DNA of 64,000 nt, taken from assembly GCA_963822405.1 (NCBI GenBank), contig CAWGHH010000005.1, positions 39,439-103,438 on the forward strand, read 5' to 3'. Made by a program: the position numbers and the translations under genes. The notes beneath the pieces were generated by a model. It did no database searches. It saw nothing but the letters and a program-made list of their open reading frames with translations, and was not told the origin of the DNA. The DNA comes from Candidatus Uhrbacteria bacterium. GTDB lineage: Bacteria > Patescibacteriota > Patescibacteriia > UBA9934. Positions 3,968-38,837 of this stretch are shown one piece after another (within the stretch, counting starts at the first letter, position 1; every line of letters begins with the position of its first letter).

Positions 3968-5272
3968 TTAACGACTCAGTTTCCGCGCAATCTCATCCAC
4001 GTTCCCCGCGCCCATAACTAGGACAACGTCACCTTCTTTAATTTCTTTTTCGAGTATTCCGCGAGCTTCATCCAAGTCTTTCGCGTAGAACATTGGTTTA
4101 GCAAAGTTCGGTTTGAGTGCATCGAGCAAGTCTCGGCTTGAAATCTTTCCCTCTTCTTCATTGCGACCTTCAACGTGATAAATTTCTGGAAGCACAACAA
4201 CATCCGCACCAGTAAAACTTTTCACGAAATCAGCGAACAACGCTTGAGTACGGGAATGCTGGTGAGGCTGAAAACACAACACTATTCGTCGACCAGGGAA
4301 GAATTCGCGCGCGGCTTCGATCGTCCCCGTCACCGCCGTTGGATGATGACCATAGTCAGAAATAATTTCCGCGCCATGATACTGGCCAACTCTTTCAAAC
4401 CGGCGCCACACGCCAGAAAATTCAGCCAATGACGCCAAAGAAACTTTGTCATTAATGGCGTACTGTCGAGCCACCGAAAGAGCCGCGAGCGCGTTCATTC
4501 TGTTAAACGCTCCAGGAACTTTAAGCTTGATCGCCTCGGCTTCAACCGAGCTAAAGCGAAGTGCTCGCTCGGAGAATATCTGCATCGAATTCTTGTCATC
4601 GGCATTCAATAGAACTGCACCAGTGGTTTTATCTACGCATTCCTGAAACGTCGCAATGATATGGTCGAGATCTCGGTAAACATCCAAATGATCTTCCTCG
4701 ATATTCGTAATCACGGTTGTCTCCGGCCAGAGCTGCACCATTTTTTGCTTGTACTCATCGCCTTCAATGATCAAAATGTCGCTCGCACCAACACGCAAAT
4801 TGCCAAGCTCCCAACCAGGAACAAGCGTGCCAACGAATACGGTCGGATCCAATCCGGCATCTTCGAAAATCTTTCCAGTCATGGCCGTAGTCGTCGATTT
4901 TCCGTTCGTGCCCGTCACACAAATAGTTCGATATTCTTTCGAGAGCTCCCCAAGAAAATCAAAATGCCCAAGCTGAGGAATCCCCAGCTCGGTTGCTCGC
5001 GCACGTTCTGGATCCTCGACGGGTACCGCCTCAGAATATACAATCAGATCAATATCACTCGAAATCTTCTCGGGATTCGATCCGATCCACACCTCCACCG
5101 AATGTACGGGCTTGGCGCCGCCAAGCCCCTTCACCGAATCTACAATCATCGATGCCTTCGCATCCGATCCACTCACCTCTTTTCCCTTCACAACCAAAAA
5201 CTTGGCAATGGCACTAATGCCAATACCGCCAACGCCGATACAATGAACTCGCTTGTATTTATCGAGGAACAT
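3968..5272 (-). CDS. murC: UDP-N-acetylmuramate--L-alanine ligase MurC
   Basis: N-terminal HCIGVGGIGISAIAKFLVVKGKEVSGSD and P-loop ICVTGTNGKSTTTAM; 434 aa. Confidence 0.9.
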   Translation of the reverse strand: MFLDKYKRVHCIGVGGIGISAIAKFLVVKGKEVSGSDAKASMIVDSVKGLGGAKPVHSVEVWIGSNPEKISSDIDLIVYSEAVPVEDPERARATELGIPQLGHFDFLGELSKEYRTICVTGTNGKSTTTAMTGKIFEDAGLDPTVFVGTLVPGWELGNLRVGASDILIIEGDEYKQKMVQLWPETTVITNIEEDHLDVYRDLDHIIATFQECVDKTTGAVLLNADDKNSMQIFSERALRFSSVEAEAIKLKVPGAFNRMNALAALSVARQYAINDKVSLASLAEFSGVWRRFERVGQYHGAEIISDYGHHPTAVTGTIEAAREFFPGRRIVLCFQPHQHSRTQALFADFVKSFTGADVVVLPEIYHVEGRNEEEGKISSRDLLDALKPNFAKPMFYAKDLDEARGILEKEIKEGDVVLVMGAGNVDEIARKLSR

Positions 5273-5303
5273 AATTTACCCGTCCTCCTTGCCCTCCCCC
5301 CGA

Positions 5304-5326
5304 CCCCCTCCACTGCGTGGAGGGGG
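5304..5326. repeat. 23-bp GC-rich palindrome (ccccctccac-tgc-gtggaggggg), left inverted repeat flanking the DUF559 gene
   Basis: 10-bp perfect stem with a 3-nt loop. Its exact reverse complement occurs at 5738-5760. Confidence 0.8.
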
Positions 5327-5333
5327 AGGAGTG

Positions 5334-5708
5334 CTAAGAGACAATTCTTTCGCGAATAATTAAAATGATTGATTCCAAAACTCTATCCGGATTATCACAA
5401 AACTCATTATTGGAAAACCGTAGTACCACAACACCGGCCTCTACTAAATATAAGTCCCGCTCTTTGTCATAATCTTTTGCCTCCGCATTATCATGCACCG
5501 CACCGTCTAGCTCAACCGCAATCTTTCCCTCGTGCGTATAGAAATCAACAATGTATGGACCAATTCCTACTTGTCGACGAAACTTTACACCGCCACATCT
5601 TCGTTGCCGCAATCGATCCCACAACAATTCTTCAGCCGGTGTCTGGTGAACTCGAAGCTCTCGACGCCTCTCCTTACTCCAAGATGGATTAACCAGCTGC
5701 TGCTCCAT
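5334..5708 (-). CDS. DUF559 / very-short-patch-repair-like endonuclease-domain protein
   Basis: LLWDRLRQRRCGGVKFRRQVGIGPYIVDFYTHEGKIAVELDGAVHDNAEAKDYDKERDLYLVEAGVVVLRFSNNEF is typical of DUF559 (Vsr/restriction-endonuclease-like fold). The listed ORF start at 5798 reads through the hairpin (PPPLPPPLRGGGG); start is more likely the internal Met at 5708. Confidence 0.7.
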   Translation of the reverse strand: MEQQLVNPSWSKERRRELRVHQTPAEELLWDRLRQRRCGGVKFRRQVGIGPYIVDFYTHEGKIAVELDGAVHDNAEAKDYDKERDLYLVEAGVVVLRFSNNEFCDNPDRVLESIILIIRERIVS

Positions 5709-5737
5709 AACATTTTCAAGCTCAGGGTTTCGAACTC

Positions 5738-5760
5738 CTCCCCCTCCACGCAGTGGAGGG
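5738..5760. repeat. 23-bp palindrome, right inverted repeat (ccccctccac-gca-gtggaggggg)
   Basis: Reverse complement of 5304-5326. Confidence 0.8.
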
Positions 5761-5775
5761 GGTAAGGGGGGAGGA

Positions 5776-6972: not shown

Positions 6973-7977
6973 TTAGCCCAAAAACTGCACTTCTTCTTCT
7001 AGTTGGATTCCGTAATGATCCCGCACCTTCATCTTAATAAGAGAAATCAGCTCCATGATCTGGCTCGCGGTAGCATGACCGGTGTTCATCAAAAAATTAC
7101 CGTGTTCTTCGGAAACCATGGCGTCACCCATTTTTGTACCCTTCAAACCGGCTTGATCGATCAACCAACCAGCAGCAAGACGCTTAGATTTCAACATCGC
7201 TTCTGGAATGTCAGCGTCCTGTTTTAGTTTGGCGAGAGTCGACTCGTCCGTGAATTCGTAATTCTTAAACATGCATCCTGCACTCGCCGCGCCGAGGGGT
7301 TGGGACTTCTTTCGCTTCTCAAGGTTCGCATCGATCAATGCGAGTGCCTCAACCTTGTCACCGGGAGTAAGCTTGAACGTCGCCTCGAGGATGACATCAT
7401 TGTTTCCAAGTTCCTTAAGTACGCTGTGACGATATTTCATCTTCAAATCTTCAGCGGCGACGTTAATAACATCGCCTTCTCGAAGCAATTTCACGGACAC
7501 CAAATTATCCTTCGTCTCCCCGCCAAAACAACCGGCATTTCCGCGCACCGCTCCCCCGATCGTACCGGGCAACGAAACCGCCCATTCAAAACCTCGCAGA
7601 CCGGCATTCGCTGTTTGTCGAGCCACTGTCGCTGAAATAGCGCCAGCCTCGGCCGTAACAACGTCGCCGTTGATCGAAATACTTCGCATCGCAAGCTTGA
7701 TCACGAGTCCCTCGAATCCTTCGTCCGAAACTAAAGTATTCGATCCCCCGCCAAGAATAAAAAACTTCAAGTTATTTTCTTTGGCGAGCTTAATCGCGTC
7801 AACTACATCCTGGCTGGACTTAGCCTCAACGAAAAACTTGGCTGGCCCGCCGATTTTCATGTTTACATGTTTAGCAAGCGGCTCGTTTTCCTTGAATTGT
7901 GCACCGAATCGTTTCTTCATTTCATCGATCATAGAATGGGTCGACGCAGGGACATACCCCTCCTTGCGTTCTTGCAT
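6973..7977 (-). CDS. murB: UDP-N-acetylenolpyruvoylglucosamine reductase MurB
   Basis: FAD-binding N-domain (KIGGPAKFFVEAKSSQDVVDAIKLAKENNLKFFILGGGSNTLV), GTIGGAVRGNAGCFGGE and the C-terminal MurB domain. Confidence 0.85.
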   Translation of the reverse strand: MQERKEGYVPASTHSMIDEMKKRFGAQFKENEPLAKHVNMKIGGPAKFFVEAKSSQDVVDAIKLAKENNLKFFILGGGSNTLVSDEGFEGLVIKLAMRSISINGDVVTAEAGAISATVARQTANAGLRGFEWAVSLPGTIGGAVRGNAGCFGGETKDNLVSVKLLREGDVINVAAEDLKMKYRHSVLKELGNNDVILEATFKLTPGDKVEALALIDANLEKRKKSQPLGAASAGCMFKNYEFTDESTLAKLKQDADIPEAMLKSKRLAAGWLIDQAGLKGTKMGDAMVSEEHGNFLMNTGHATASQIMELISLIKMKVRDHYGIQLEEEVQFLG

Positions 7978-14508: not shown

Positions 14509-14814
14509 ATGTTCAACAAACTCAAGCAGTTCAAAGAAATGCGTGACGAAGGCAAGAAGATGAAAGCCATGTTAGACGAAGTCGTCATTGTTGGCTCTGG
14601 TGCTGGTGGCAAAGTCATGATCACCATGAACGGCAGCCATGAAGTGCTTGGCGTTGCCATTGAAGATGGACTCGACAAGGCTCGAACAGAACAAGGCGTC
14701 AAAGAAGCAATCACTGACGTGAACAAGAAACTTCAAACCGAGCTCATGAAGAAAATGCAGGCTATGGGAGGAATGGGAGCGCTCGGTGACATGATGAAAG
14801 GGATAGGAGGTTAA
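14509..14814 (+). CDS. ybaB: YbaB/EbfC nucleoid-associated protein
   Basis: 101 aa, MFNKLKQFKEMRDEGKKMKAMLDEVVIVGSGAGGKVMITMNGSHEVLGVAIED. Classic ybaB-recR pairing. Confidence 0.8.
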   Translation: MFNKLKQFKEMRDEGKKMKAMLDEVVIVGSGAGGKVMITMNGSHEVLGVAIEDGLDKARTEQGVKEAITDVNKKLQTELMKKMQAMGGMGALGDMMKGIGG

Positions 14815-14820
14815 TGTATT

Positions 14821-14908
14821 GTCATTGCGAGGGTCCCGTCTGCGGGAGCCCGAAGCAACCTCAAAGATTGCTTCGACCCAGACGATTACGTCTGGTCTCG
14901 CAAAGACG
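14821..14908 (+). repeat. ~88-nt structured repeat, copy 1 (sense, 5' of recR)
   Basis: gtcaTTGCGAGggtcccgtctgcgggagcccGAAGCAAcctcaaagatTGCTTCgacCCAGACGattaCGTCTGGtCTCGCAAagacgg. A closing stem TTGCGAG/CTCGCAA encloses three hairpins. A near-identical inverted copy lies at 20556-20642. Confidence 0.7.
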
Positions 14909-14916
14909 GATGAGAC

Positions 14917-15516
14917 ATGCGTAAATTCCCCGCCCCCATTCACAATGCCATGGCCGCCATGGGGCGTTTGCCAGGAGTTGGTCCGAAGACGGCACTTCGG
15001 TACGTGTTTGCGCTGTTGCATTTGAAAAAGGACGAGCTCGATCTTGTCGCGCGAGCCATAGATAACCTAAAACGCGTCGCCACCTGCGTGACGTGTTTTA
15101 CGTATGCGGAAAGTAGCGTCTGCGATATCTGTTCGGACGCTCGACGGTCGACAGACGTTCTTTGCGTTGTGGCCGAAGCGCGCGACATTTCGACCATTGA
15201 AGCAACTGGCATGTACAAGGGAAAATACTTTGTCCTCGGTGGCGTTTTGAATCCAATCGACGGCTACACGCCAGACACCCTTCACGTTCGCCAGCTCAAT
15301 GAGCGAATCAAAAACGACCTTGCGATTAAAGAAATCATCCTCGCCTTCTCCCCCGACGTTCACGGTGAAACTACCATTTTATATTTGAGCCGTCTTTTCA
15401 AAGGCGTCGACAAAAAGATTACGAGACTAGCTCGAGGACTGCCGATGGGCGCAGATATTGAATATGCGGATGAAGTGACGTTAGCGAGCGCGCTAAACGG
15501 GAGAAGCGAAACTTAA
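14917..15516 (+). CDS. recR: recombination protein RecR
   Basis: HhH region RLPGVGPKTALRY, zinc finger CVTCFTYAESSVCDICSD, and Toprim domain (LCVVAEARDISTIEATGMYKGKYFVLGG). Confidence 0.9.
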   Translation: MRKFPAPIHNAMAAMGRLPGVGPKTALRYVFALLHLKKDELDLVARAIDNLKRVATCVTCFTYAESSVCDICSDARRSTDVLCVVAEARDISTIEATGMYKGKYFVLGGVLNPIDGYTPDTLHVRQLNERIKNDLAIKEIILAFSPDVHGETTILYLSRLFKGVDKKITRLARGLPMGADIEYADEVTLASALNGRSET

Positions 15517-16742: not shown

Positions 16743-16773
16743 ACAAAACAAAACCGAGGCATTTCTACCCCGG
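16743..16773 (-). terminator. rho-independent terminator (copy 1 of duplicated terminator sequence)
   Basis: Minus-sense ccggggtagaaatgcctcgg followed by TTTTGTTTTGT. Nearly identical to 17396-17430. Confidence 0.6.
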
Positions 16774-16828
16774 AATTATTTATGAAATGTTGTTATTTTG
16801 AATCGATACAGTCTGCGACCAAATCGAA

Positions 16829-17395: not shown

Positions 17396-17430
17396 TGCAA
17401 AAAACAAAACCGAGGCATTTCTGCCCCGGG
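17396..17430 (-). terminator. rho-independent terminator (copy 2) after rplU
   Basis: Minus-sense cccggggcagaaatgcctcgg followed by TTTTGTTTTTTG. Confidence 0.65.
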
Positions 17431-17435
17431 CTTGT

Positions 17436-17747
17436 TTAGGAAATCTTTTCGATTTGGATGATTGTGTAAGGCTGGCGGTGGCCAACGTTACGGCGGTAGC
17501 GAGTCTTTCGCTTGTACTTGATAACGGAGATTTTATCTGCGCGACCATGTTCAGCGATTTTCGCTACAACCTCAGCACCCTTTACTTCAGGGCTGCCGAC
17601 CTTCACTTCAGAGCCGTCATCATTGCTGATGAGCATGGCTGTAAAAGTCATGGTCTTACCTTCTTCAAGGTCAATCTTCTCTACCTGGACTTTAAGCCCC
17701 TCTTTTACAAGGTATTGCTTACCGCCAGTGGTAATTACTGCGTACAT
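17436..17747 (-). CDS. rplU: 50S ribosomal protein L21
   Basis: MYAVITTGGKQYLVKEGLKVQVEKIDLEEGKTMTF... (103 aa) is the canonical bL21 N-terminus. Confidence 0.9.
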   Translation of the reverse strand: MYAVITTGGKQYLVKEGLKVQVEKIDLEEGKTMTFTAMLISNDDGSEVKVGSPEVKGAEVVAKIAEHGRADKISVIKYKRKTRYRRNVGHRQPYTIIQIEKIS

Positions 17748-19505: not shown

Positions 19506-20540
19506 TTATGAAGGCCGTCTAGAAATTCGCGCGAGCGTTCGTGCTACGCCGAGGAATACTAGTGACAACAAGACAAGAATCAATAGTTTTTCAAGATGCG
19601 AAAAGAACAATGTCGTCAGGCCGAACAACAACGAGAACCCAGCGTACACCGCTACTACCTGTCGTTCCGACAATCCTGCATCGAACAGTAGATGGTGAAA
19701 ATGATAGCGGTCACCACTAGTGATCGATCGATGCTCTCGCAAGCGACGATACATCACCTGGACTACGTCGAGACATGGCACGCCGAGCACGAGGAGTAAC
19801 GTCACCATTTTACTACCGGCAATGATCGACAGCACACCAAGCGTAAATCCGAGGAACGTACTTCCGCCCTCGCCTAGAAATATTCGAGCGACAGGAAAGT
19901 TCCAAAGTAGAAAACCAATAAGTGCAGCGGCAAACATGAGAGCGAGGAGTGCAACGTCTGGCTGAAAGTATGCCGTCGATAACGCCAGAGCCGCAATCAC
20001 GAGTGAACCGATCGTTGCGACGCTTGTCGTTAGTCCGTCAACGCCGTCGAGCAGCTTAGTCGCGTAACTCATGACAACGAGCCAAACGAAAGTTATAGCA
20101 GCAGATACCGTCGACGACACAACAATCGCCTCGCCAACGGGATTAGTCAGCTTCGAGACTCCGATACCAGCAAGACTCGCAATCAACGCTGCAACAACCG
20201 GAAACCACACACTGTATTTCGGCGACAATCCGAGTTTATCGTCGAGCGCACCACCGATCATGAGCACGAGTCCAGCGACAAAGAATCCGAAGTACTGCCT
20301 AAGCTCTATCTGTCCGCTCGTCAGATGCGTCGACAACGCAAGCACAAGAAGCACCGGCACAAAGAAACCGACGAACACCGCGAGTCCGCCGAGCAATGGG
20401 GTCGACGCCGTGTGAATCTTTCGTCCCCCCGTTGGCTCGTCGACAATCCTAAATTTCTTTGCCAATAAAATAACGAGCGGAGTAAGACTCGCTGAAAGAA
20501 TAAATGCGAGAGCGATGGGGAGGGGGAACCAGGGAGGCAT
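19506..20540 (-). CDS. UDP-HexNAc:polyprenol-phosphate HexNAc-1-phosphate transferase (WecA/TagO/MraY family, GT4)
   Basis: KFRIVDEPTGGRKIHTASTPLLGGLAVFVGF plus about 10 TM segments; more WecA/TagO-like than MraY. Confidence 0.75.
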   Translation of the reverse strand: MPPWFPLPIALAFILSASLTPLVILLAKKFRIVDEPTGGRKIHTASTPLLGGLAVFVGFFVPVLLVLALSTHLTSGQIELRQYFGFFVAGLVLMIGGALDDKLGLSPKYSVWFPVVAALIASLAGIGVSKLTNPVGEAIVVSSTVSAAITFVWLVVMSYATKLLDGVDGLTTSVATIGSLVIAALALSTAYFQPDVALLALMFAAALIGFLLWNFPVARIFLGEGGSTFLGFTLGVLSIIAGSKMVTLLLVLGVPCLDVVQVMYRRLREHRSITSGDRYHFHHLLFDAGLSERQVVAVYAGFSLLFGLTTLFFSHLEKLLILVLLSLVFLGVARTLARISRRPS

Positions 20541-20555
20541 AGTCAGAATGTCAGT

Positions 20556-20642
20556 CCTTGCGAGACCAGACGTAATCGTCTGGGTCGAAGCAATCTCATT
20601 GAGGTTGCTTCGGGCTCCCGCAGACGGGACCCTCGCAATGAC
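20556..20642 (-). repeat. ~88-nt structured repeat, copy 2 (inverted; sense, 5' of the WecA-like gene)
   Basis: Reverse complement matches 14821-14908. The only differences are a 2-nt insertion in a hairpin loop and the 3' tail. Confidence 0.7.
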
Positions 20643-20655
20643 GAAGAGTAAGTCT

Positions 20656-23250
20656 CTACAACTTCTGTGCCTTCTTTACCTCAATTTTCCCGCCGGCGTC
20701 AAAAATAACGGTATCGCGCCTAGTAATATTACCTTTTAATAATTCGTCAGCTAGCTTATTCTCCAGTTTTTCCTCTATTGTCCGTCGTAATGGTCGCGCA
20801 CCGAATTTCGGGTCGAATCCCTGTTTACCAAGTTCGTGAATGGCCGCATCTGTTACCTCTAGCGTCATGCCCTTGGCCTCAATCTGCCTCTTTACTTTCT
20901 CGACTAGCAAATATGCAATAGCGGTCACGTCGGCTTCCGTCAACGGCGCAAACACAATCACATCATTAAACCGGTTCAGGAATTCTGGTCGGAAAAGTGA
21001 TCGCAATTCTGTCGCGAGCAATGACTCTTTTATGGTCGACAGCGCCGTACCCTTTGCTACCTCGTCTTGAATGTATTGTGTCCCCGCATTACTCGTCGCA
21101 ATCAGAATCACATTCGTGAAGTCAACAGTCTGGCCGAGCCCATCGGTTAGTCTGCCGTCGTCCATAACCTGAAGGAACAAATTCAAAATATCAGGACTTG
21201 CTTTTTCGAGCTCGTCGAGTAGTAACAACGAAAATGGATTTCTTCGAATCGCCTCAGTGAGCAATCCAGTCTGTCCGTTGCCGCCGATTAATCGAGTAAC
21301 TGACTCAGCTGCTTGGTACTCGCTCATATCAAAACGCACCATTGCGTTTTCGTTTCCAAAGAATAGTTCACTCGTCGCTTTAGCAAGTTCGGTTTTACCA
21401 ACACCAGTTGGCCCCAAGAACAAAAAGTTGGCGATTGGTTTCCCCGCGCTGCGCATCTCGGTGCGTGCTCGACGTAAAGCCGAAGCGACCGCTGATACTG
21501 CGTGTTCTTGACCGATCAATCGCTCGTGTAGCTTTTCCTCTAGGTTCAATAGCTTCTGCCCTTCCCCCTCGCCCACCTGACTAACTGGAATCTTTGTTTT
21601 CAACTCGACCATTGATGCTACGTCATCCTTAGTCACCCAAGTCAAAGTTTTATTCTGTTTGCCTACAGTCAAAGCAACTTCTTTTAAAAGCGAAATCGCG
21701 TTGTCCGGCAACACACTGTCATGCAAGTACCGCAACGAGAGATCAACCGCCGAGGCAATCGCTCCATAAGTGAAAATAACATGATTTTTCACCTCCATGA
21801 GCCCGACTTTTGACTCGACAATGCGAATAGCAAGGTCACGAGGAGGCTCCGCAATCTGAATACGTTCGAGCCTCTTCCCAATCACTGACCGCTCTATTTT
21901 CTCGGCGTAACCTTGAGGCGTCGTTGTTGCGATCACGAACGTATAACCCTTTTCGAGTTCGCCAGCGAGAATGCTCGAAAGATCAATCGACGAGCCAACG
22001 CCCACTAGTTCGTGAATATCTTCGATGACAAGCACGATGTTACCCGAGTGACCAACCTCATTAAGCGCATGCAAAAAACGTTCTTCTGCCCCACTTCCAC
22101 CATGTGCGCTTACAATGTGCGGAACGGACAATTTCAAAAGTCGCTTGTCTTCGAGGATCCCCGGAACACGCTCTTCGACCATCAGGTCAGCAATGCCCTC
22201 GATAATAGCTGACTTACCAACGCCAGAAGGACCGACAAGTACAACACTCGTTCCGCCGCCTTCTATAGCGCGAAAAATAGACTGAATCTCTTCGTCGCGT
22301 CCAACAAGCAACTCAGTGTATCCACGAGCAGACGCACGGGTAAGGTCTTCGCTCACCGAATCAAGAAACGGCGTAGCAATAGCCGTCATTGCGCGGTCCA
22401 TGTTGTTTTGTGGCTTGAAGGCAGCCGCTCGGCGAAATACCTTATAACGCTCCTGTTGCTCCTCAGAAATTCGCATCCAGTGCAGAGCATTTTCAAGTTC
22501 AGCTTGCGGAATTCCCTGCTCATCAAAAAGTTCTTTGAAAAATTCATCAGACTGATAAGCAGCGGCAAATATATCGAGACTTGTGAGGTGTCGTCGCCCG
22601 CCTTTTACGGCAATCACTCCAGCCAGAGCCAACACGTGTGCGCCCCGCTCGCCAATAACCGTGTCACCTTTTGGTTCAGTGGCTAGATGTCGACGCAACG
22701 GCTCGCGCACCGTATCAATCGTCAAACCAAGACGAGCAAATAGAATCTGGCCAGGCCGAGAACCAAGCGCACCGGCAAAAAGATGAGATGGCCCAACATC
22801 TGCATTTTCATCTTTCTTAGCTAGAAGATACGCATCTTCTACTGTCTTAATGGCTTCGTCGGTTGAATATACCGAAAGCTCATTGGCCTTCTCACTCACC
22901 GAATCCTCAAATTCAGCTGACGCATTCTTCGGAAACGCCAGTGGCTCCGGCGCAGAAATTCTTTTTTCGAAATACGCAAAGAGGAAGAGGATAAGACCCA
23001 AAGGCAGAAAAGCGAACATCGCCCGAGGCTCGCTCCATGTCTGTAGAGGCGTAGCTTGCCACGCCCCCACGAGCGCAGCGAATCCCAGAATTGAAAGCGT
23101 CCCCATTGCAAACGCCACCAGCGCAAACATTTTTCTAGCTTTCTTCAATCCCCTCTCATGGCCTATAGAAACTTCATCAATCTCCTTTCGCCAAACAAAA
23201 GTCTGATCACCCGCGCGAAGTCCCGGTAATGATTCTTGATTACGCGACAT
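20656..23250 (-). CDS. Clp/Hsp100 family double-AAA+ ATPase (ClpA/ClpC-like) with N-terminal membrane anchor
   Basis: Two Walker A sites (VLVGPSGVGKSAIIEG; LFLGPTGVGKTELAKA), a Clp N-domain, and the ClpAB signature RFDMSEYQ. Two predicted TM helices precede the Clp N-domain. Start probably internal MSRNQ (23250). Confidence 0.75.
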   Translation of the reverse strand: MSRNQESLPGLRAGDQTFVWRKEIDEVSIGHERGLKKARKMFALVAFAMGTLSILGFAALVGAWQATPLQTWSEPRAMFAFLPLGLILFLFAYFEKRISAPEPLAFPKNASAEFEDSVSEKANELSVYSTDEAIKTVEDAYLLAKKDENADVGPSHLFAGALGSRPGQILFARLGLTIDTVREPLRRHLATEPKGDTVIGERGAHVLALAGVIAVKGGRRHLTSLDIFAAAYQSDEFFKELFDEQGIPQAELENALHWMRISEEQQERYKVFRRAAAFKPQNNMDRAMTAIATPFLDSVSEDLTRASARGYTELLVGRDEEIQSIFRAIEGGGTSVVLVGPSGVGKSAIIEGIADLMVEERVPGILEDKRLLKLSVPHIVSAHGGSGAEERFLHALNEVGHSGNIVLVIEDIHELVGVGSSIDLSSILAGELEKGYTFVIATTTPQGYAEKIERSVIGKRLERIQIAEPPRDLAIRIVESKVGLMEVKNHVIFTYGAIASAVDLSLRYLHDSVLPDNAISLLKEVALTVGKQNKTLTWVTKDDVASMVELKTKIPVSQVGEGEGQKLLNLEEKLHERLIGQEHAVSAVASALRRARTEMRSAGKPIANFLFLGPTGVGKTELAKATSELFFGNENAMVRFDMSEYQAAESVTRLIGGNGQTGLLTEAIRRNPFSLLLLDELEKASPDILNLFLQVMDDGRLTDGLGQTVDFTNVILIATSNAGTQYIQDEVAKGTALSTIKESLLATELRSLFRPEFLNRFNDVIVFAPLTEADVTAIAYLLVEKVKRQIEAKGMTLEVTDAAIHELGKQGFDPKFGARPLRRTIEEKLENKLADELLKGNITRRDTVIFDAGGKIEVKKAQKL

Positions 23251-23662
23251 AAGTTGGAGATACGCCAGACATGAAAGCGTGATAAGCAAAAAGCAAAGCC
23301 AAAGCGATTGGTCCAAAGACGTACAAAGCGAATAATGCGAACGCGACAATCACCCAAAATAAAAGTGCAATCACCCGGCCAACAATCTGCACGCTCCGCA
23401 TGAACACACTAATCAACCGACTCTGCCAATCATACGCGCCGTACATCGGCACGAATATATTTTTCACCCAAACTCCAATCTGCAAAGACCTAGAAGCTCC
23501 AATAATCAAATCACTCGTGCCCGTCACTCTTTCGAGTAATCCCGTGGAATACCACCAAATTGGGAAATACAAAAAATCGAGGGTCAGGTCTCGCACAATA
23601 CGGAAACTGGCCTCAAGCGAAGGCATATGGGGAAAGTATAGCAGGAAAATGAAGAACCACAC
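23240..23662 (-). CDS. hypothetical membrane protein
   Basis: Hydrophobic 140-aa ORF. Start uncertain; it overlaps the 3' end of the island-2 ORF in another frame. Confidence 0.35.
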   Translation of the reverse strand: MWFFIFLLYFPHMPSLEASFRIVRDLTLDFLYFPIWWYSTGLLERVTGTSDLIIGASRSLQIGVWVKNIFVPMYGAYDWQSRLISVFMRSVQIVGRVIALLFWVIVAFALFALYVFGPIALALLFAYHAFMSGVSPTYVA

Positions 23663-24234: not shown

Positions 24235-24272
24235 TGTCGCTCCTCACAAAAGGTGATCGCAAATACCATGTA

Positions 24273-24328
24273 AATATAGCAAAAAAATGGCTTTTTGTCA
24301 AGCCATTTTCTGCTTATATTTGCGAATA
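24273..24328 (-). promoter_or_regulatory. conserved promoter block, copy 1 (TTGACA-17-TATATT with hairpin-forming spacer)
   Basis: Minus sense reads gcagaaaatggcTTGACAaaaagccatttttttgcTATATTtacatgg. About 55 nt are nearly identical to 38239-38294. Confidence 0.65.
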
Positions 24329-25489
24329 TTAGCCTCTTTCTATCAGCGCACGAATCTCCTCCATCATCCTAATATAAAACCTCAGGTTCTGGTACGTGGC
24401 TAGGCGAAGGCCAAGGATTTCTTGGTTCTTAAATAAATGTCGCAAGTAAAGTTTCGAGTAGGTTTGAGAAGTCGGCCAGTCATTGAATGGATCAATCGGT
24501 GATTCGTCAGTGATGAATTCTTCGTTCTCAATCGAAATTTTCTTATATAGAGCTTCGGCGATTCTAAAATCAGCCGCATCATCTTGGGCGCGGGCAAAGG
24601 CCTCCGCCACACACGTAGCTGGGTCGCCGGCCCAAACAAATAATCCGCCGTGACGCGCGTGCCTGGTCGGGATTACGCAGTCAAACATGTCCACGCCGTG
24701 GGCGACGTAGTACATGATTTCCTCTGGCATTCCCCCGCCCATGAAATAGCGTGGCTTGTCAGCTGGCATGTTTGACGCTAAACGCTTCACAATGCGGAAC
24801 GTGTCTTCGCGGTGCTCGCCAACAGACAAACCACCAATAGCATAGCCGTCAAAATTACTCTTCAAAAGTCCTGCCAGTGATCGCGCGCGCAAGTCTTCAT
24901 ATGTCCCGCCTTGAATGATTCCAAATAAAAGTCCGTGGCCGGAATGCGCCGCCTTTGACCTCTCGGCCCAACGCAACGATCGTTCCATTGCCTCTTCATA
25001 TCTTTCGCGCGTGGACAAACCAGCCGCCACATCATCAAACTGCATTCGAATGTCGGATCCGATCGCGGCCTGGATACGCATCGATTCTTCAGGAGTGAGT
25101 CTAACAGTGTGCCCGTCTAAGTGCGATTGGAATGTCACGCCGTCTTCGTCCGTCTTATTCAACTTCGCCAAAGAAAAAACCTGATAGCCACCGGAGTCCG
25201 TCAGAATCGGCCCCTCCCAACGCATAAACTTTCTCATCCCGCCAACTTTCTGCAGAATCTCAGTGCCTGGTCGAAGCAACAAATGATAAGTATTGCCGAG
25301 AATAATTTGCGCGCCCAAAGACTTCACCTCCTCCGAAGTCATCGCCTTTACGGCTCCTGTCGTCGCAATCGGCATAAACACCGGCGTCTTAACCACTCCG
25401 CTTGGCGTAGTCAATTCACCGGCACGAGCTAGACCTTTGGTCGACGAAACGTTAAACGCTGAGCTCATAGAGCGCAATGCTAGTGGCAA
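24329..25489 (-). CDS. tgt: queuine tRNA-ribosyltransferase (tRNA-guanine transglycosylase)
   Basis: TPVFMPIATTGAVK, LGNTYHLLLRPG, DSGGYQVFSL and a C-terminal zinc-binding region. Start may be internal MSSAFNV (25468). Confidence 0.85.
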   Translation of the reverse strand: MPLALRSMSSAFNVSSTKGLARAGELTTPSGVVKTPVFMPIATTGAVKAMTSEEVKSLGAQIILGNTYHLLLRPGTEILQKVGGMRKFMRWEGPILTDSGGYQVFSLAKLNKTDEDGVTFQSHLDGHTVRLTPEESMRIQAAIGSDIRMQFDDVAAGLSTRERYEEAMERSLRWAERSKAAHSGHGLLFGIIQGGTYEDLRARSLAGLLKSNFDGYAIGGLSVGEHREDTFRIVKRLASNMPADKPRYFMGGGMPEEIMYYVAHGVDMFDCVIPTRHARHGGLFVWAGDPATCVAEAFARAQDDAADFRIAEALYKKISIENEEFITDESPIDPFNDWPTSQTYSKLYLRHLFKNQEILGLRLATYQNLRFYIRMMEEIRALIERG

Positions 25490-36560: not shown

Positions 36561-36986
36561 TTGTTCCATAATGGTTCGGGAGATATTCCGTTAGTGCATC
36601 TTCTCTATCAGGCATACGCCGACTGGCACGAACTACTGTTACGATTTCCAAAATCCCAAAGATATTCACTTGGCGAAAAATCTCAAACAACTCTGCTTGC
36701 AACACTACAAGATATTCTTTCGGCCGCAGCAACCTCAAACCTTGAAATAAAGTGCTCTAAACTTCTTGAGGCGAGTGGCGAACTAGACACCCTCAAACTT
36801 CTTGCTCAACTGACAAAAAAATGTAAGTGTATTTCGAACATCCAATACCAGCAATTTGATTCAAAACTTCACTCTGCCGGCAAAATGTTAGGAGCCTGGA
36901 TTAAATCAGTGGAAAGCAAAAAAGCGCAGAACGCTCTTTTGCCTCATGAGGAGTCCCTGAGAACGGGGAACGACGTGTTGTCGTAG
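36561..36986 (+). CDS. Avd-like accessory variability determinant (four-helix-bundle family)
   Basis: FPKSQRYSLGEKSQTTLLATLQDILSA, LEASGELDTLKLLAQLTKKCKCIS and C-terminal MLGAWIKSV align with Avd/TIGR02436 four-helix-bundle proteins (FPKEE.YGLTSQ.RRAA.SI; GSASELETQL; LGSWI). Opposite strand to the RT. Its 3' end overlaps the TR. Start codon uncertain (TTG 36561 or GTG 36594). Confidence 0.6.
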   Translation: MFHNGSGDIPLVHLLYQAYADWHELLLRFPKSQRYSLGEKSQTTLLATLQDILSAAATSNLEIKCSKLLEASGELDTLKLLAQLTKKCKCISNIQYQQFDSKLHSAGKMLGAWIKSVESKKAQNALLPHEESLRTGNDVLS

Positions 36987-37069
36987 GAGTTAGCGACGTG
37001 GTTACCGTTCAAGTTCGCGTCCTGACCATTGCGGTTGACGTTCGGCGAGTAAGCCCACAGGTCATAGCC
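36954..37069 (-). repeat. DGR template repeat (TR)
   Basis: 116 nt homologous to 37349-37464. All 14 mismatches place T on the + strand (A on the minus/sense strand) in this copy. Sense-frame translation is Asn(AAC)-rich: SPNVNRNGQDANLNGNHVANSYDNTSFPVLR. Confidence 0.85.
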
Positions 37070-37332
37070 AAACACCGTCCTTTACATCTCTCCCTTCAAG
37101 GACACCGGAAGCAGGCGCACCCACTTCCTGAATTTTATGCGGAACCTACGCGAATGCTGGTTCCTAGAAGAGATGCGGAGTACTCATAAGTCCCGCCGCA
37201 CGCTTCTGAAATCCGTAGATTCCAAAACTCTGGCGGTGATTGGGACAATGAAAGTATACCAAAATCAAAATGGCACCCGGACTTCTCTGAACCACGAGGT
37301 CCAGAAAATCCGAGTGCCGAGTTTCCAAGTGC

Positions 37333-38148
37333 CTAGCTCTGCACGTACTCCCTGAGAACGGGGAACGACGCGTCGTCGTAGGAGTAAGCGACGTGGTCAC
37401 CGAACAAGACCGCGCCCTGACCATCGCGGCTGACGAGCGGCGAGTAAGCCCACAGGCCATAGCCAGACACGTTGAGCAGGATTGCGGCGGCGATGGCGTA
37501 CGGCGTCTTCACACCGTCCATCTGCTTGACCCATTCGGGGGACTGACAGGCGGCGTAGAGGACTGCGAACCCGGCAAGCTTCCCGGCCTGGGTCTTCTGC
37601 ACTTCGCCCAGGATCACGCCCTTTGGGTTGAAGTTGGCGTGAAGATCAAGCACCTCCACCTTAATACTGTTCGGGACGAATGACTCCTCTTCGAGCATCT
37701 TCACGCGGTTCTCGTCCACGCCGTTGGCGTAAGCGGCCGCCCACTCCTGGTAGGTGCCCACGAACGTATCCTTGATACGCTCGCGCACGAACTTGAGAGT
37801 GGCCGGGACGTCCTCCTTGAACACGGAGATGACGATCTCGAGCCCCTCATTCTTCGGGCTCTCCTTCTCGTAGCCGGCAATGAGCCCGCTCTTGTGAGCC
37901 AAGGCCACCGCGACGTCCACTTCTTCCGGGTTCACACCCGGGTAGGACTTGGCAATGGCGATCTTGTCCGCGAGCGTGTTGTACTTTCCGTGAATGAGAC
38001 GGAAGACCGGCTCGGACGCCAGGTTCTTCACCCAGCGCTCCATGAGTACGTCGTTCGTCAGGAGCTCGATGACCATCTTCAGCGTCCCGCCAAAGCGGAA
38101 GAAACGACGGAAGAACTCGCCAGCCTGCTCAAGATGCACATTTGCCAT
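37333..38148 (-). CDS. DGR target (variable) protein, 271 aa, VR at the C-terminus
   Basis: ORF ends ...GYGLWAYSPLVSRDGQGAVLFGDHVAYSYDDASFPVLREYVQS. The last ~40 codons are the VR. GC is about 60%. RBS GGAGAttacgaaaATG. Own consensus promoter. Confidence 0.75.
   Translation of the reverse strand: MANVHLEQAGEFFRRFFRFGGTLKMVIELLTNDVLMERWVKNLASEPVFRLIHGKYNTLADKIAIAKSYPGVNPEEVDVAVALAHKSGLIAGYEKESPKNEGLEIVISVFKEDVPATLKFVRERIKDTFVGTYQEWAAAYANGVDENRVKMLEEESFVPNSIKVEVLDLHANFNPKGVILGEVQKTQAGKLAGFAVLYAACQSPEWVKQMDGVKTPYAIAAAILLNVSGYGLWAYSPLVSRDGQGAVLFGDHVAYSYDDASFPVLREYVQS
37349..37464 (-). repeat. DGR variable repeat (VR)
   Basis: Differs from TR only at TR adenine positions (14 of 14). The 22-nt identical GC-rich 3' end (cgtcgttccccgttctcaggga in sense) is consistent with an IMH element. 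Confidence 0.85.
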
Positions 38149-38238
38149 TTTCGTAATCTCCGGCCACCTCTGACTTGCCTACAGGAACACGAATTGTGCC
38201 CCATAAACCAGCCTATTCTAATTGAGAGTGACCATGCC

Positions 38239-38294
38239 ATAATAGCAAAAAAATGGCGTTTTGTCAAGCCATTTTCTGCTTATATTGGCCTAGA
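38239..38294 (-). promoter_or_regulatory. conserved promoter block, copy 2 (TTGACA-17-TATTAT) driving the DGR target gene
   Basis: Minus sense reads gcagaaaatggcTTGACAaaacgccatttttttgcTATTATggcatgg. Near-identical to 24273-24328. Confidence 0.65.
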
Positions 38295-38837
38295 TTAGCC
38301 CATTTCTTCCCTAATTTCACCTTCTAACTGTTCAACGTCAATCATGTTCATCATTTTCTTCAGCTCCGGGTCGTTCTTCGGGCCAACTTTCAGCTCTTTG
38401 CGAATGTCATTCAGCATCTCGAGCATCTTGGTAATTTCGCGCTCGGCTTGGACGTTTACTTGAAAGTCGATCTCTTCACGTAACTCGGCCACTCTTGCGG
38501 CACGGTTCTCGCTCATGAGCACGATGATAGATAAGAAAATTGCTTCAAGCGACACGAATGTTGTCAGCAAGAAAAACGGAAACGGGTCAATCACTTTAAC
38601 TCCCGGAAAAATACCGGAATTAAGAAATATCCAAATCGCAAAAACTGACATATTCCCAACCAAAAATGTCATCGTACCAAAACCACTCGTTAATAAATCA
38701 GCCGTACGCTGACTAAAAGATCTCTGACGGTTCATCTTGGACGCAAAAATTGCCATCGTTCTATTTGTAGTGGCTTGCCTGAATGCTGGTTTCTTTTTGG
38801 TCGAACCTCTCCTCTTGGTCGCCATAATCTCCTCCAT
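38295..38837 (-). CDS. DUF1003 family membrane protein
   Basis: LLTSGFGTMTFLVGNMSVFAIWIFLN...DPFPFFLLTTFVSLEAIFLSIIVLMSENR, two TM helices and a C-terminal coiled coil. Confidence 0.6.
   Translation of the reverse strand: MEEIMATKRRGSTKKKPAFRQATTNRTMAIFASKMNRQRSFSQRTADLLTSGFGTMTFLVGNMSVFAIWIFLNSGIFPGVKVIDPFPFFLLTTFVSLEAIFLSIIVLMSENRAARVAELREEIDFQVNVQAEREITKMLEMLNDIRKELKVGPKNDPELKKMMNMIDVEQLEGEIREEMG

Follow-up and report, generated by a model that had tools for sequence, protein, structure and literature searches.

Introduction

Ssn nucleases and the repeats that accompany them were first described in 2025, when Chenal et al. (Nat Commun 2025) reported that oriented dRS3 repeats (NTS, CGTCATTCCCGCGMAVGCGGGAATCYRG) and related SRM hairpins flank the ssnA gene (PMC11893778). 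SsnA is a single-domain GIY-YIG protein of 94 aa that binds the hairpin only as ssDNA, not as RNA, and cuts a few nucleotides upstream of the hairpin motif (PMC11893778). Within the NTS, the GTC that precedes the palindrome is critical for cleavage and the C that follows it is critical for binding; the hairpin loop, in turn, can be extended or split (PMC11893778). The Ssn/NTS system limits transformation in N. meningitidis, and the NTS-ssnA-NTS arrangement has been likened by Chenal et al. to an insertion sequence (PMC11893778).

The dRS3 repeats of Neisseria, together with RPE-4 and RPE-6 of Rickettsia, are also counted among the CGTC-tagged REPs (PMC3733652). As described by Di Nocera et al. 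(BMC Genomics 2013), these repeats carry a CGTC or TGTC tag and a stem that starts with AT (PMC3733652). Four families (CGTC-1 to CGTC-4) are characterized by stems of 8-9 bp, loops of 4-5 nt and a CCA tail (PMC3733652). They occur mostly as inverted dimers, without a dedicated transposase, and a search for RAYT genes with CGTC repeats on their flanks found none (PMC3733652).

The element considered here occurs twice, in two intercistronic spacers of the window, which is the whole 64-kb stretch of DNA that was analysed. With a probability of roughly three in four, judged from sequence, each copy is a gene-less, inverted pair of hairpin motifs with outward-facing tags, belonging to the class of motifs that flank ssn genes and are recognised by Ssn nucleases. 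On this analysis, the element is best classed as a variant of the Ssn-associated, CGTC-tagged hairpin repeats, with nuclease recognition predicted from its likeness to the NTS.

Two copies in intercistronic spacers

The two copies and the genes on either side of them are arranged as follows.

14509..14814, plus strand: ybaB/ebfC-like gene (Pfam PF02575), upstream of copy 1
14820..14908, plus strand: copy 1, whole element, from the TGTC tag to the complementary GACG, in the ybaB-recR spacer
14917..15516, plus strand: recR, assigned from homologs and Pfam domains, downstream of copy 1
19506..20540, minus strand: MraY/WecA-family glycosyltransferase gene (PF00953, Glycos_transf_4), downstream of copy 2
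20553..20643, minus strand: copy 2, whole element, in the spacer between the ClpB-like gene and the PF00953 glycosyltransferase gene
20656..23349, minus strand: ClpB-type AAA+ gene (Pfam), transcriptionally upstream of copy 2

The initial annotation had placed two copies just 5' of the start codons of recR and of a WecA-like GT4 gene, both in the sense orientation of their host operons, and a check of the coordinates agrees with this: position 14908 lies 8 nt before the recR ATG and position 20556 lies 15 nt before the GT4 ATG. Both gene identities are likewise borne out by Pfam (RecR; PF00953 Glycos_transf_4). Copy 1 sits between the stop of the ybaB-like gene at 14814 and the recR ATG at 14917, with GTCATTGCGAG at 14821-14831 and CTCGCAAAGAC at 14897-14907, and copy 2 sits between the stop of the ClpB-like gene at 20656 and the ATG of the PF00953 glycosyltransferase gene at 20540. 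A DnaB gene sits upstream of ybaB.

The copies are identical at 84/86 positions (98%). The 2-nt loop insertion that had been said to separate them is present, as a TG in the central loop, and they differ further by one base in the right terminal block (AAAGAC vs AAGGAC) and in the flanks. The pattern TTGCGAG-N60-85-CTCGCAA finds these 2 matches in the window and 0 in 100 shuffles. No further copies or lone arms were found within the 64-kb window, and neither copy contains a promoter-like or terminator-like site, or a U-tract of the terminator type.

Fold and anatomy of the arms

The closing stem around three hairpins that had been proposed for the element was recovered as a fold in both copies, with free energies of -45.5 and -43.6 kcal/mol (z = -6.9 and -5.2) for copies 1 and 2; as an RNA core with covariation, it did not hold up. 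For the complementary strand the value is -49.7 kcal/mol (z = -7.1), slightly more stable because a C.A mismatch in the central stem of the sense strand turns into a G.U pair there. The mRNA-sense strand is therefore not singled out by the fold. The conserved sequence of the closing and central stems would be explained by the presence of two inverted recognition units, which are laid out as follows.

14820..14860, plus strand: copy 1 arm 1, an SRM-like unit read on the top strand; folds alone
14820-14823, plus strand: copy 1 arm 1, tag TGTC
14824-14828, plus strand: copy 1 arm 1, basal stem ATTGC, pairing with GCAAC at 14855-14859, first pair A.C
14832-14851, plus strand: copy 1 arm 1, distal hairpin GGTCCCG-TCTG-CGGGAGCC
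14860, plus strand: copy 1 arm 1, 3' C
14861..14865, no strand: copy 1 central spacer TCAAA, between the arms, the position of the ssn ORF in gene-carrying units
14866..14908, minus strand: copy 1 arm 2, an SRM-like unit read on the bottom strand; folds alone
20603..20643, minus strand: copy 2 arm 1, CGTC-ATTGC-GAG-distal hairpin-CGAA-GCAAC-C
20553..20595, plus strand: copy 2 arm 2, AGTC-CTTGC-GAG-distal hairpin-CGAA-GCAAT-C

A GAG stands between the 5' strand of the basal stem and the distal hairpin in arm 1 of copy 1, and arm 2 of this copy reads CGTC-TTTGC-GAG-ACCAGACG-TAAT-CGTCTGGGT-CGAA-GCAAT-C. Arm 1 of copy 2 is the same as arm 1 of copy 1 except for the first base of the tag. The general arm can thus be written as (C/T)GTC-ATTGC-GAG-[variable distal hairpin]-CGAA-GCAAT-C. 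When folded alone with DNA parameters, each arm forms a TTGC/GCAA basal stem that closes the distal hairpin, and the whole element folds as a cloverleaf because one such unit lies on each strand.

The four window arms carry the tags TGTC, CGTC, CGTC and AGTC. The consensus has a stem that starts with AT and a C at its 3' side (ATTGC...GCAAT-C); the window arms keep the 3' C and are mismatched at the first pair. This mismatch is found in 4/4 window arms (ATTGC/GCAAC, TTTGC/GCAAT and CTTGC/GCAAT), which are therefore perhaps poor substrates, and it may represent decay.

A repeat family in many phyla

The initial annotation had suggested that related genomes be searched for more copies. Scanning species-representative genomes with the degenerate pattern CATTGCGAG-N-GAAGCAA-N-TTGCTTC revealed a family of at least 120 loci spread over many phyla. 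Among the matches listed are Bradyrhizobium, Afipia and other Alphaproteobacteria, Chloroflexota, Nostoc, Ignavibacteriota and Bacteroidota, and also Omnitrophota, Planctomycetota, Spirochaetes, Tisiphia, Nitrospirae and Peregrinibacteria. Viral contigs gave just 21 pattern matches, and the repeat is therefore not phage-borne.

Members share the layout Y-GTCATTGCGAG...CGAAGCAATC-loop-GATTGCTTCG...CTCGCAATGAC-R, in which the termini, Y-GTCATTGCGAG and CTCGCAATGAC-R, are invariant and conservation ends abruptly at the Y and the R. The terminal inverted repeats of the element are 11-12 nt long. Across 89 members, the tag positions are occupied by G in 89/89 (-2), T in 88/89 (-1) and Y in 85/89 (-3). 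It is the stems, not the loops, that hold the conserved sequence, and the variable sequence forms the peripheral hairpins. The segments between the conserved blocks range from 4 to 52 nt overall, with a median of ~12-13 nt for the variable insert per unit, and 106 distinct sequences were counted among the 126 segments of at least 12 nt. These distal segments are prone to form hairpins (76 distinct segments of at least 14 nt, mean z = -1.85, Wilcoxon p = 2e-12). The tail 3' of the unit is CTC in the window and CCA in some lineages only (Bradyrhizobiaceae).

A full-text search of the literature with sequence strings of the element returned unrelated primers only, and ATTGCGAG is absent from the accessible text and supplementary material of PMC3733652. 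Br-REP1 and Br-REP2 of Bradyrhizobium were considered and rejected, as their sequences differ. A locus labelled Klebsiella (L114), with three identical copies, gave no plasmid match.

In line with the earlier statement that the element resembles no known riboswitch or tRNA-like structure, Rfam at the gathering threshold gave no match on the element in the window and 20 family loci, and at E<=10 the element itself gave chance matches only. No tRNA or tmRNA was detected in the element, ARAGORN and Rfam seeing only the two genuine tRNAs of the window.

Association with Ssn GIY-YIG genes

Clustering of the ORFs near 136 elements yielded no family present in more than 5 loci; GIY-YIG genes were found in 2. 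Among the neighbours at 120 loci, no transposase recurred, and the GIY-YIG gene was the only small gene that did. At both L116 (Flavihumibacter) and L057 (Campylobacteraceae), which come from different phyla, a GIY-YIG gene of ~95 aa is surrounded by closely packed elements and bare heads. The test was then reversed, by using an alignment of the L116 and L057 proteins to collect 80 metagenome loci on protein similarity alone. As these are the closest 80 relatives of two element-adjacent proteins, the result describes that Ssn clade, not all GIY-YIG genes. A GTCATTGCGAG head (<=1 mismatch) occurs within 400 nt of the gene in 61/80 loci, and on both sides of it in 49/80. Head density is 3.79 per kb near the gene and 0.24 per kb farther away (16-fold), with ~0.016 per kb expected at random.

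The dominant geometry at these loci is A> B> [GIY-YIG gene] <B <A. The GIY-YIG gene therefore occupies the central loop of the element and, given this gene-in-loop form, the window copies represent the gene-less form of a unit of ~450 bp. The element-associated proteins have PF01541 as their sole domain, and the nuclease family comprises 4,064 clusters (50% identity, E<=1e-10). Searches with the nuclease gave nothing above cut-off in NCBIfam, and weak matches to UPF0213 structures only in the PDB. Among the 80 loci is L217, where three canonical CGTCATTCCCGCGCAGGCGGGAATCCAG (NTS) repeats were found; the protein encoded there shares 60% identity over 96 aa with a protein from an ATTGC-flanked gene. 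This full-length identity to an NTS-flanked protein places the associated proteins in the Ssn family.

The repeats that flank ssn genes fall into several basal-stem types, of which ATTGC/GCAAT is the most frequent (129), followed by ATTCT/AGAAT (16), ATCGC (9), ATGCT (8) and ATTCC (8); ACGCT and ATCCT were also seen. Every variant comes with its perfect complement, i.e., the stem covaries, and the variants are enriched near ssn genes (5.42 vs 0.38 per kb). Some ssn genes (L181, L187, L075) have tandem arrays of repeats beside them. GCAAC or GCAAA was noted in 6/20 upstream arms and 1/20 downstream arms, a sample too small to conclude from.

The published SRM pattern, HGTCWYN(0-2)YYVSBRHN(0-5)WNVSBRGN(0-2)RNCYNB, matches the control NTS and has no match in the window or on ATTGC heads; among the 80 ssn loci it matches only the canonical NTS copies of L217. 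The pattern allows a loop of 0-5 nt, too short to accommodate the distal hairpin.

Neither the 64-kb window (phmmer, E<10) nor ~60 kb of related loci from CPR bacteria yielded a GIY-YIG gene. Among the proteins retrieved as close homologs of Ssn, none carried a CPR label, the top matches being from Dehalococcoidales. As the window holds no ssn gene, current activity there is presumptive.

At L231 (GCA_041300405.1, Dehalococcoidales-like), the ybaB-recR junction of a genome from another phylum holds a complete arm-ssn-arm unit, and at L206 an ssn unit lies directly upstream of a near-identical recR start. This ybaB-recR coincidence is given no statistical weight because it was noticed post hoc and very few contexts are annotated.

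Insertion and exchange at the two spacers

RecR homologs place the window within Patescibacteria, close to Uhrbacteria. The ybaB-recR site is filled in the closest relative (L232, RecR 97.8%), in which the element has only 2 substitutions relative to copy 1, one in the loop of hairpin 1 and one in the central loop region. The same spacer is empty in other relatives: it measures 3 nt (stop-TGC-ATG) in L121 (RecR 91%), 3 nt in L123 (RecR 82%) and 13 nt in L124 (RecR 77%). The clpB-GT4 spacer occurs in four different states among relatives with a GT4 identity of 83-89%. It is reduced to 6 nt, without the element, in L229 (GT4 85%), consists of 41 nt with a plain hairpin in L230, and holds a different palindromic element in L228. 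In L227, which belongs to the same genome as L232, it holds an element that agrees with window copy 2 in its conserved blocks, its centre (TG included) and its right flank, and both of whose distal hairpins differ.

As the spacers are empty in L121, L123, L124 and L229, both copies are insertions. Copy 1 appears to have been inserted after the split from the relative with 91% RecR identity (L121), and the genomes compared point to recent insertions of both copies into intercistronic spacers of a patescibacterial, Uhrbacteria-like lineage. Target-site duplications were not found in 89 elements at 16 offsets, nor between filled and empty sites; the CG apparent at the element ends is part of the palindrome, not a target-site duplication.

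Window copy 2 is a mosaic: its centre and flank are those of its orthologue in the closest relative, its distal hairpins those of copy 1. Together with the 98% identity of the two window copies, this shows that sequence has passed between the copies since the split from the closest relative. It thus appears that at least one copy exchanged distal hairpins with the other after insertion. The structural conservation in homologs to which the initial annotation had drawn attention was also seen: compared with window copy 2, hairpin 1 of L227 keeps 7/7 pairs with three double changes, and the basal stem covaries across the family. The hairpin 1 pairs were counted by hand; a MAFFT alignment of four sequences set hairpin 3 of L227 out of register.

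A GGAGG in the 3' end of ybaB is the Shine-Dalgarno sequence of recR in relatives with an empty site, and lies 8 nt before the ATG in L121. In the window, this GGAGG is ~105 nt upstream of the recR ATG; the base of the closing stem follows it after ~11 nt, and the ATG comes ~10 nt past the stem. If formed, the closing stem would bring the GGAGG and the recR ATG to within ~20 nt of each other.

A putative mechanism and its alternatives

The full form of the element would carry the ssn gene between its arms, and the window copies would be a short, MITE-like derivative of it. The structured mobile intergenic element that had been one of the initial options is thereby borne out and made specific, as an inverted pair of Ssn-type hairpin motifs. 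Such a pair would act as ssDNA, to be bound and cut by a putative cognate Ssn whose gene would lie elsewhere in the genome. With one putative Ssn site 5' on each strand, cuts would fall just outside each end. Repair or copying initiated by the nuclease could then spread and homogenise the copies, which would account for both conversion and tandem arrays. Transcription through the element would be passive, and effects of the element at the RNA level are possible but secondary. The insertions may be tolerated because the stable fold holds the upstream Shine-Dalgarno region near the start codon. A further proposal, that ATTGC-type pairs are active non-autonomous mobile elements that are copied or converted in trans by Ssn GIY-YIG ssDNA nucleases, is put forward tentatively, as possible rather than probable.

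Readings in which the element works as RNA draw on its position and its fold. The initial annotation had offered a leader or attenuator of recR and the GT4 gene, and a cis-regulatory RNA of this kind (leader, attenuator or riboswitch), acting from the mRNA-sense strand, would agree with the sense orientation of both copies 8-15 nt before a start codon and with the very stable sense fold. Nevertheless, it is very improbable: the same spacers lack the element in four relatives (L121, L123, L124 and L229), and elsewhere the family sits beside unrelated neighbours in many phyla. Furthermore, Rfam gives no match even at E = 10, the conserved sequence is held in the stems while the peripheral hairpins vary, the antisense strand folds better, as the C.A of the sense strand becomes G.U there, and a terminator-like U-tract is lacking. 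The orientation bias itself comes from n=2 copies and is without statistical support. A mobile element could also have been co-opted at the RNA level in the way of REPs, as an mRNA stabiliser, a processing site or a bridge from Shine-Dalgarno sequence to start codon. The base of the closing stem, ~11 nt from the GGAGG and ~10 nt from the recR ATG, is well placed for such a bridge, and an action as RNA has been proposed for CGTC REPs, most of which are found between unidirectional and convergent ORFs (PMC3733652). Such co-option is nonetheless improbable as the main explanation, since SsnA does not bind RNA (PMC11893778), the fold has no strand preference, and the site can equally be empty or be occupied by other hairpins or elements.

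Two further readings concern mobility. The copies could be inert relics, of the same Ssn-type origin, that drift in a genome without a cognate nuclease and have a passive hairpin effect in the mRNA. CPR genomes are small and have few mobile-element genes, which counts toward this reading, as do the absence of ssn genes from both the window and ~60 kb of related CPR loci and the mismatched first base pair of each arm. It is unlikely, if not strongly so, because the two copies are 98% identical, yet the distal hairpins differ in the closest relative's orthologue of copy 2, and because the clpB-GT4 spacer is found in four states among relatives. A classical TIR MITE, moved by a DDE transposase or by a tyrosine transposase of the IS200/IS605/RAYT type, would likewise be short, multi-copy and polymorphic in presence and absence, and terminal inverted repeats of 11-12 nt are in keeping with it. 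It is hardly credible in the face of the missing target-site duplication at any offset and the lack of a recurrent transposase beside the listed loci, where the small gene that does recur is GIY-YIG. The gene between the arms is a GIY-YIG nuclease in 49-61/80 loci, and Di Nocera et al. came across no RAYT with CGTC repeats on its flanks (PMC3733652). The reading as an inverted pair of Ssn-type hairpin motifs without its gene is therefore preferred.

Significance

The interest of the element lies in a missed subclass of Ssn-associated repeats, comparative evidence for its insertion and exchange, and its occurrence in a CPR genome. A very abundant class of these repeats escapes the published search pattern, so that SRM censuses based on it are likely to be undercounts; the ATTGC type may nevertheless stand in the figures of PMC11893778. 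In closely related genomes, two orthologous sites are variously filled, empty or exchanged, which provides direct comparative evidence that gene-less pairs are inserted and exchange sequence. The gene inside an inverted pair, in turn, defines a clear minimal unit and a candidate selfish element. If the proposed activity in trans is true, the arm-ssn-arm unit of ~450 bp would be a minimal selfish element of a kind so far unrecognised in bacteria, GIY-YIG-based and transposon- or homing-like. The distal hairpins would then be exchangeable modules, and operon spacers such as ybaB-recR would be preferred. For genome annotation, the repeat is a source of numerous spurious ORFs, as well as of false "structured RNA" candidates, in different phyla.

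Comparison with known systems

The closest likeness is to the SRM/NTS repeats. In both cases, GTC directly precedes a hairpin that, in the consensus of the family described here, likewise starts with AT and ends with AT followed by C, a single-domain GIY-YIG gene of ~95 aa is flanked with the tags facing outward, and gene-less inverted pairs also adjoin the NTS-flanked gene. The extent of flanking is comparable: at the loci collected here, 76% of the ssn genes have one head or more and 61% have heads on both sides, versus 71% and 42% in PMC11893778. Whereas the NTS has a stem of 8-9 bp and a loop of 3-5 nt, the arms described here have a 5-bp stem (ATTGC/GCAAT), an internal GAG/CGAA loop and a long, hypervariable distal hairpin. 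They also differ from SRM/NTS in that most occur as closely spaced inverted pairs with a cloverleaf fold, and in being found in a CPR genome.

With the CGTC REPs, the element shares the CGTC or TGTC tag, the stem that starts with AT and an inverted pairing that is able to form larger structures, as well as an intergenic location near ORF ends in several phyla, without a tyrosine transposase. In contrast to these REPs, an 8-bp ATTGCGAG/CTCGCAAT pairing spans the whole element and each unit has a variable distal hairpin. The basal stem is 5 bp long and the CCA tail is present in some lineages only, so that the element departs from the 8-9 bp stem, 4-5 nt loop and CCA tail by which those families are defined.

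As summarised in PMC3733652, REPINs and REPtrons (Bertels and Rainey 2011, PMC3116915) resemble the element in that two inverted short hairpins make up a non-autonomous unit of ~100 nt, that the same repeats flank a single small nuclease gene, that target-site duplications are absent and that the action, known or proposed, is on ssDNA hairpins. The differences from REPIN/RAYT are that the nuclease is GIY-YIG and not an HUH/Y1 transposase, that the tag is GTC and not GTAG, and that the distal hairpins of the two arms differ from each other.

Finally, the element is MITE-like in being short, non-coding, multi-copy and intergenic, with inverted-repeat ends and presence/absence polymorphism, and in having a longer, gene-carrying form with the same ends. 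Unlike bacterial MITEs, it shows no target-site duplication and no DDE transposase. In the survey by Nadal-Molero et al. (NAR 2024), 97.4% of the MITEs were confined to one genus (PMC11602168), whereas the element described here has kept the same 11-nt ends across many phyla.

Apparent exchange of distal hairpins and shared insertion sites

The distal hairpins, which are the variable hairpins inside each arm of the element, seem to have been exchanged independently of its centre, the loop region between the arms. In the closest relative, copy 1 (L232, 2904-2995) is nearly identical to the window copy (14820-14908), and comparison of its copy 2 (L227, 3898-3990) with window 20553-20643 reveals the same centre and flank, but entirely different distal hairpins. 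When read on the bottom strand, the right-arm hairpin of this L227 copy resembles hairpin 1 of the window at 17/21 positions, including one compensatory pair.

In another relative (L228), the spacer between clpB and the PF00953 glycosyltransferase gene (GT4), the position of copy 2 in the window, harbors a different element:

L228 3915-3995, clpB-GT4 spacer: palindromic element, CCATCCTGAGCGAGAGCGAAGGATCC ... CTCTTCGCAAAGCTCAGAGTGG

The arms of this palindrome are similar to the GTCATCCTGAG...CGAAGGAC repeats found on either side of the L210 homolog of ssn, a small gene coding for a single-domain GIY-YIG ssDNA nuclease. This makes the clpB-GT4 spacer a hot spot for repeats of several subfamilies.

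The gene junction that holds copy 1 is also occupied elsewhere, by the gene-carrying form of the element:

L231 2393-2786 (GCA_041300405.1, JBGLNK010000001.1), between ybaB and recR: complete arm-ssn-arm unit

The L231 genome is Dehalococcoidales-like and of another phylum, and the ybaB-recR junction that its unit shares with window copy 1 may reflect a site preference. In a second locus, L206, an ssn unit lies immediately before a near-identical recR start. In L122, a relative (GCA_964348985.1, CAYGEQ010000018.1; RecR identity 89%), a stretch of exactly 100 N masks the ybaB-recR junction (5077-5176).

Multiplied copies and gene calls

Tandem arrays adjoin ssn genes. Some are composed of complete elements, and others of bare heads, the conserved arm starts, such as (TCGTCATTGCGAGGAACGATCC)n:

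L116 1780-1870 and 2535-2600: tandem arrays
L075 2538-2850: tandem array
L181, L187, L156, L184 and L220: tandem arrays

In one Spirochaetaceae MAG, the elements are arrayed with a period of 98 nt. L114 contains three identical 64-nt elements (1568-1631, ~5575-5638 and 7321-7384), all of them in intergenic spacers of a single operon. The contig is labeled as a Klebsiella pneumoniae MAG, which may be a binning error; a search for a plasmid match to this contig found none.

Many representatives in the Ssn family match list are annotated as proteins of 130-170 aa bearing N-terminal extensions, which are probably the result of gene calls that read through the flanking repeat. If so, the repeat is a source of spurious ORF sequence.

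Other repeats in the window and a nuclease gene

The window contains further repeats and an endonuclease gene:

24265-24341 and 38231-38307: 77-nt direct repeat, 86% identical, with promoter-like TTGTCAAGCC...TATATT
16745-16803 and 17401-17459: 59-nt repeat with terminator-like hairpins
36954-37075 and 37349-37470: 122-nt repeat, 88% identical
5296-5337 and 5729-5770: 42-nt inverted repeat pair, 90% complementary
~5334-5708, - strand: 124-aa DUF559/Vsr-like endonuclease ORF (PF04480, E = 1e-32)

The two 42-nt inverted repeats bracket the DUF559/Vsr-like endonuclease gene, and the palindrome CCCCCTCCAC-TGCG-GTGGAGGGGG is present in both. The ssn units have the same layout as this locus, in which inverted hairpin repeats enclose a small nuclease gene.
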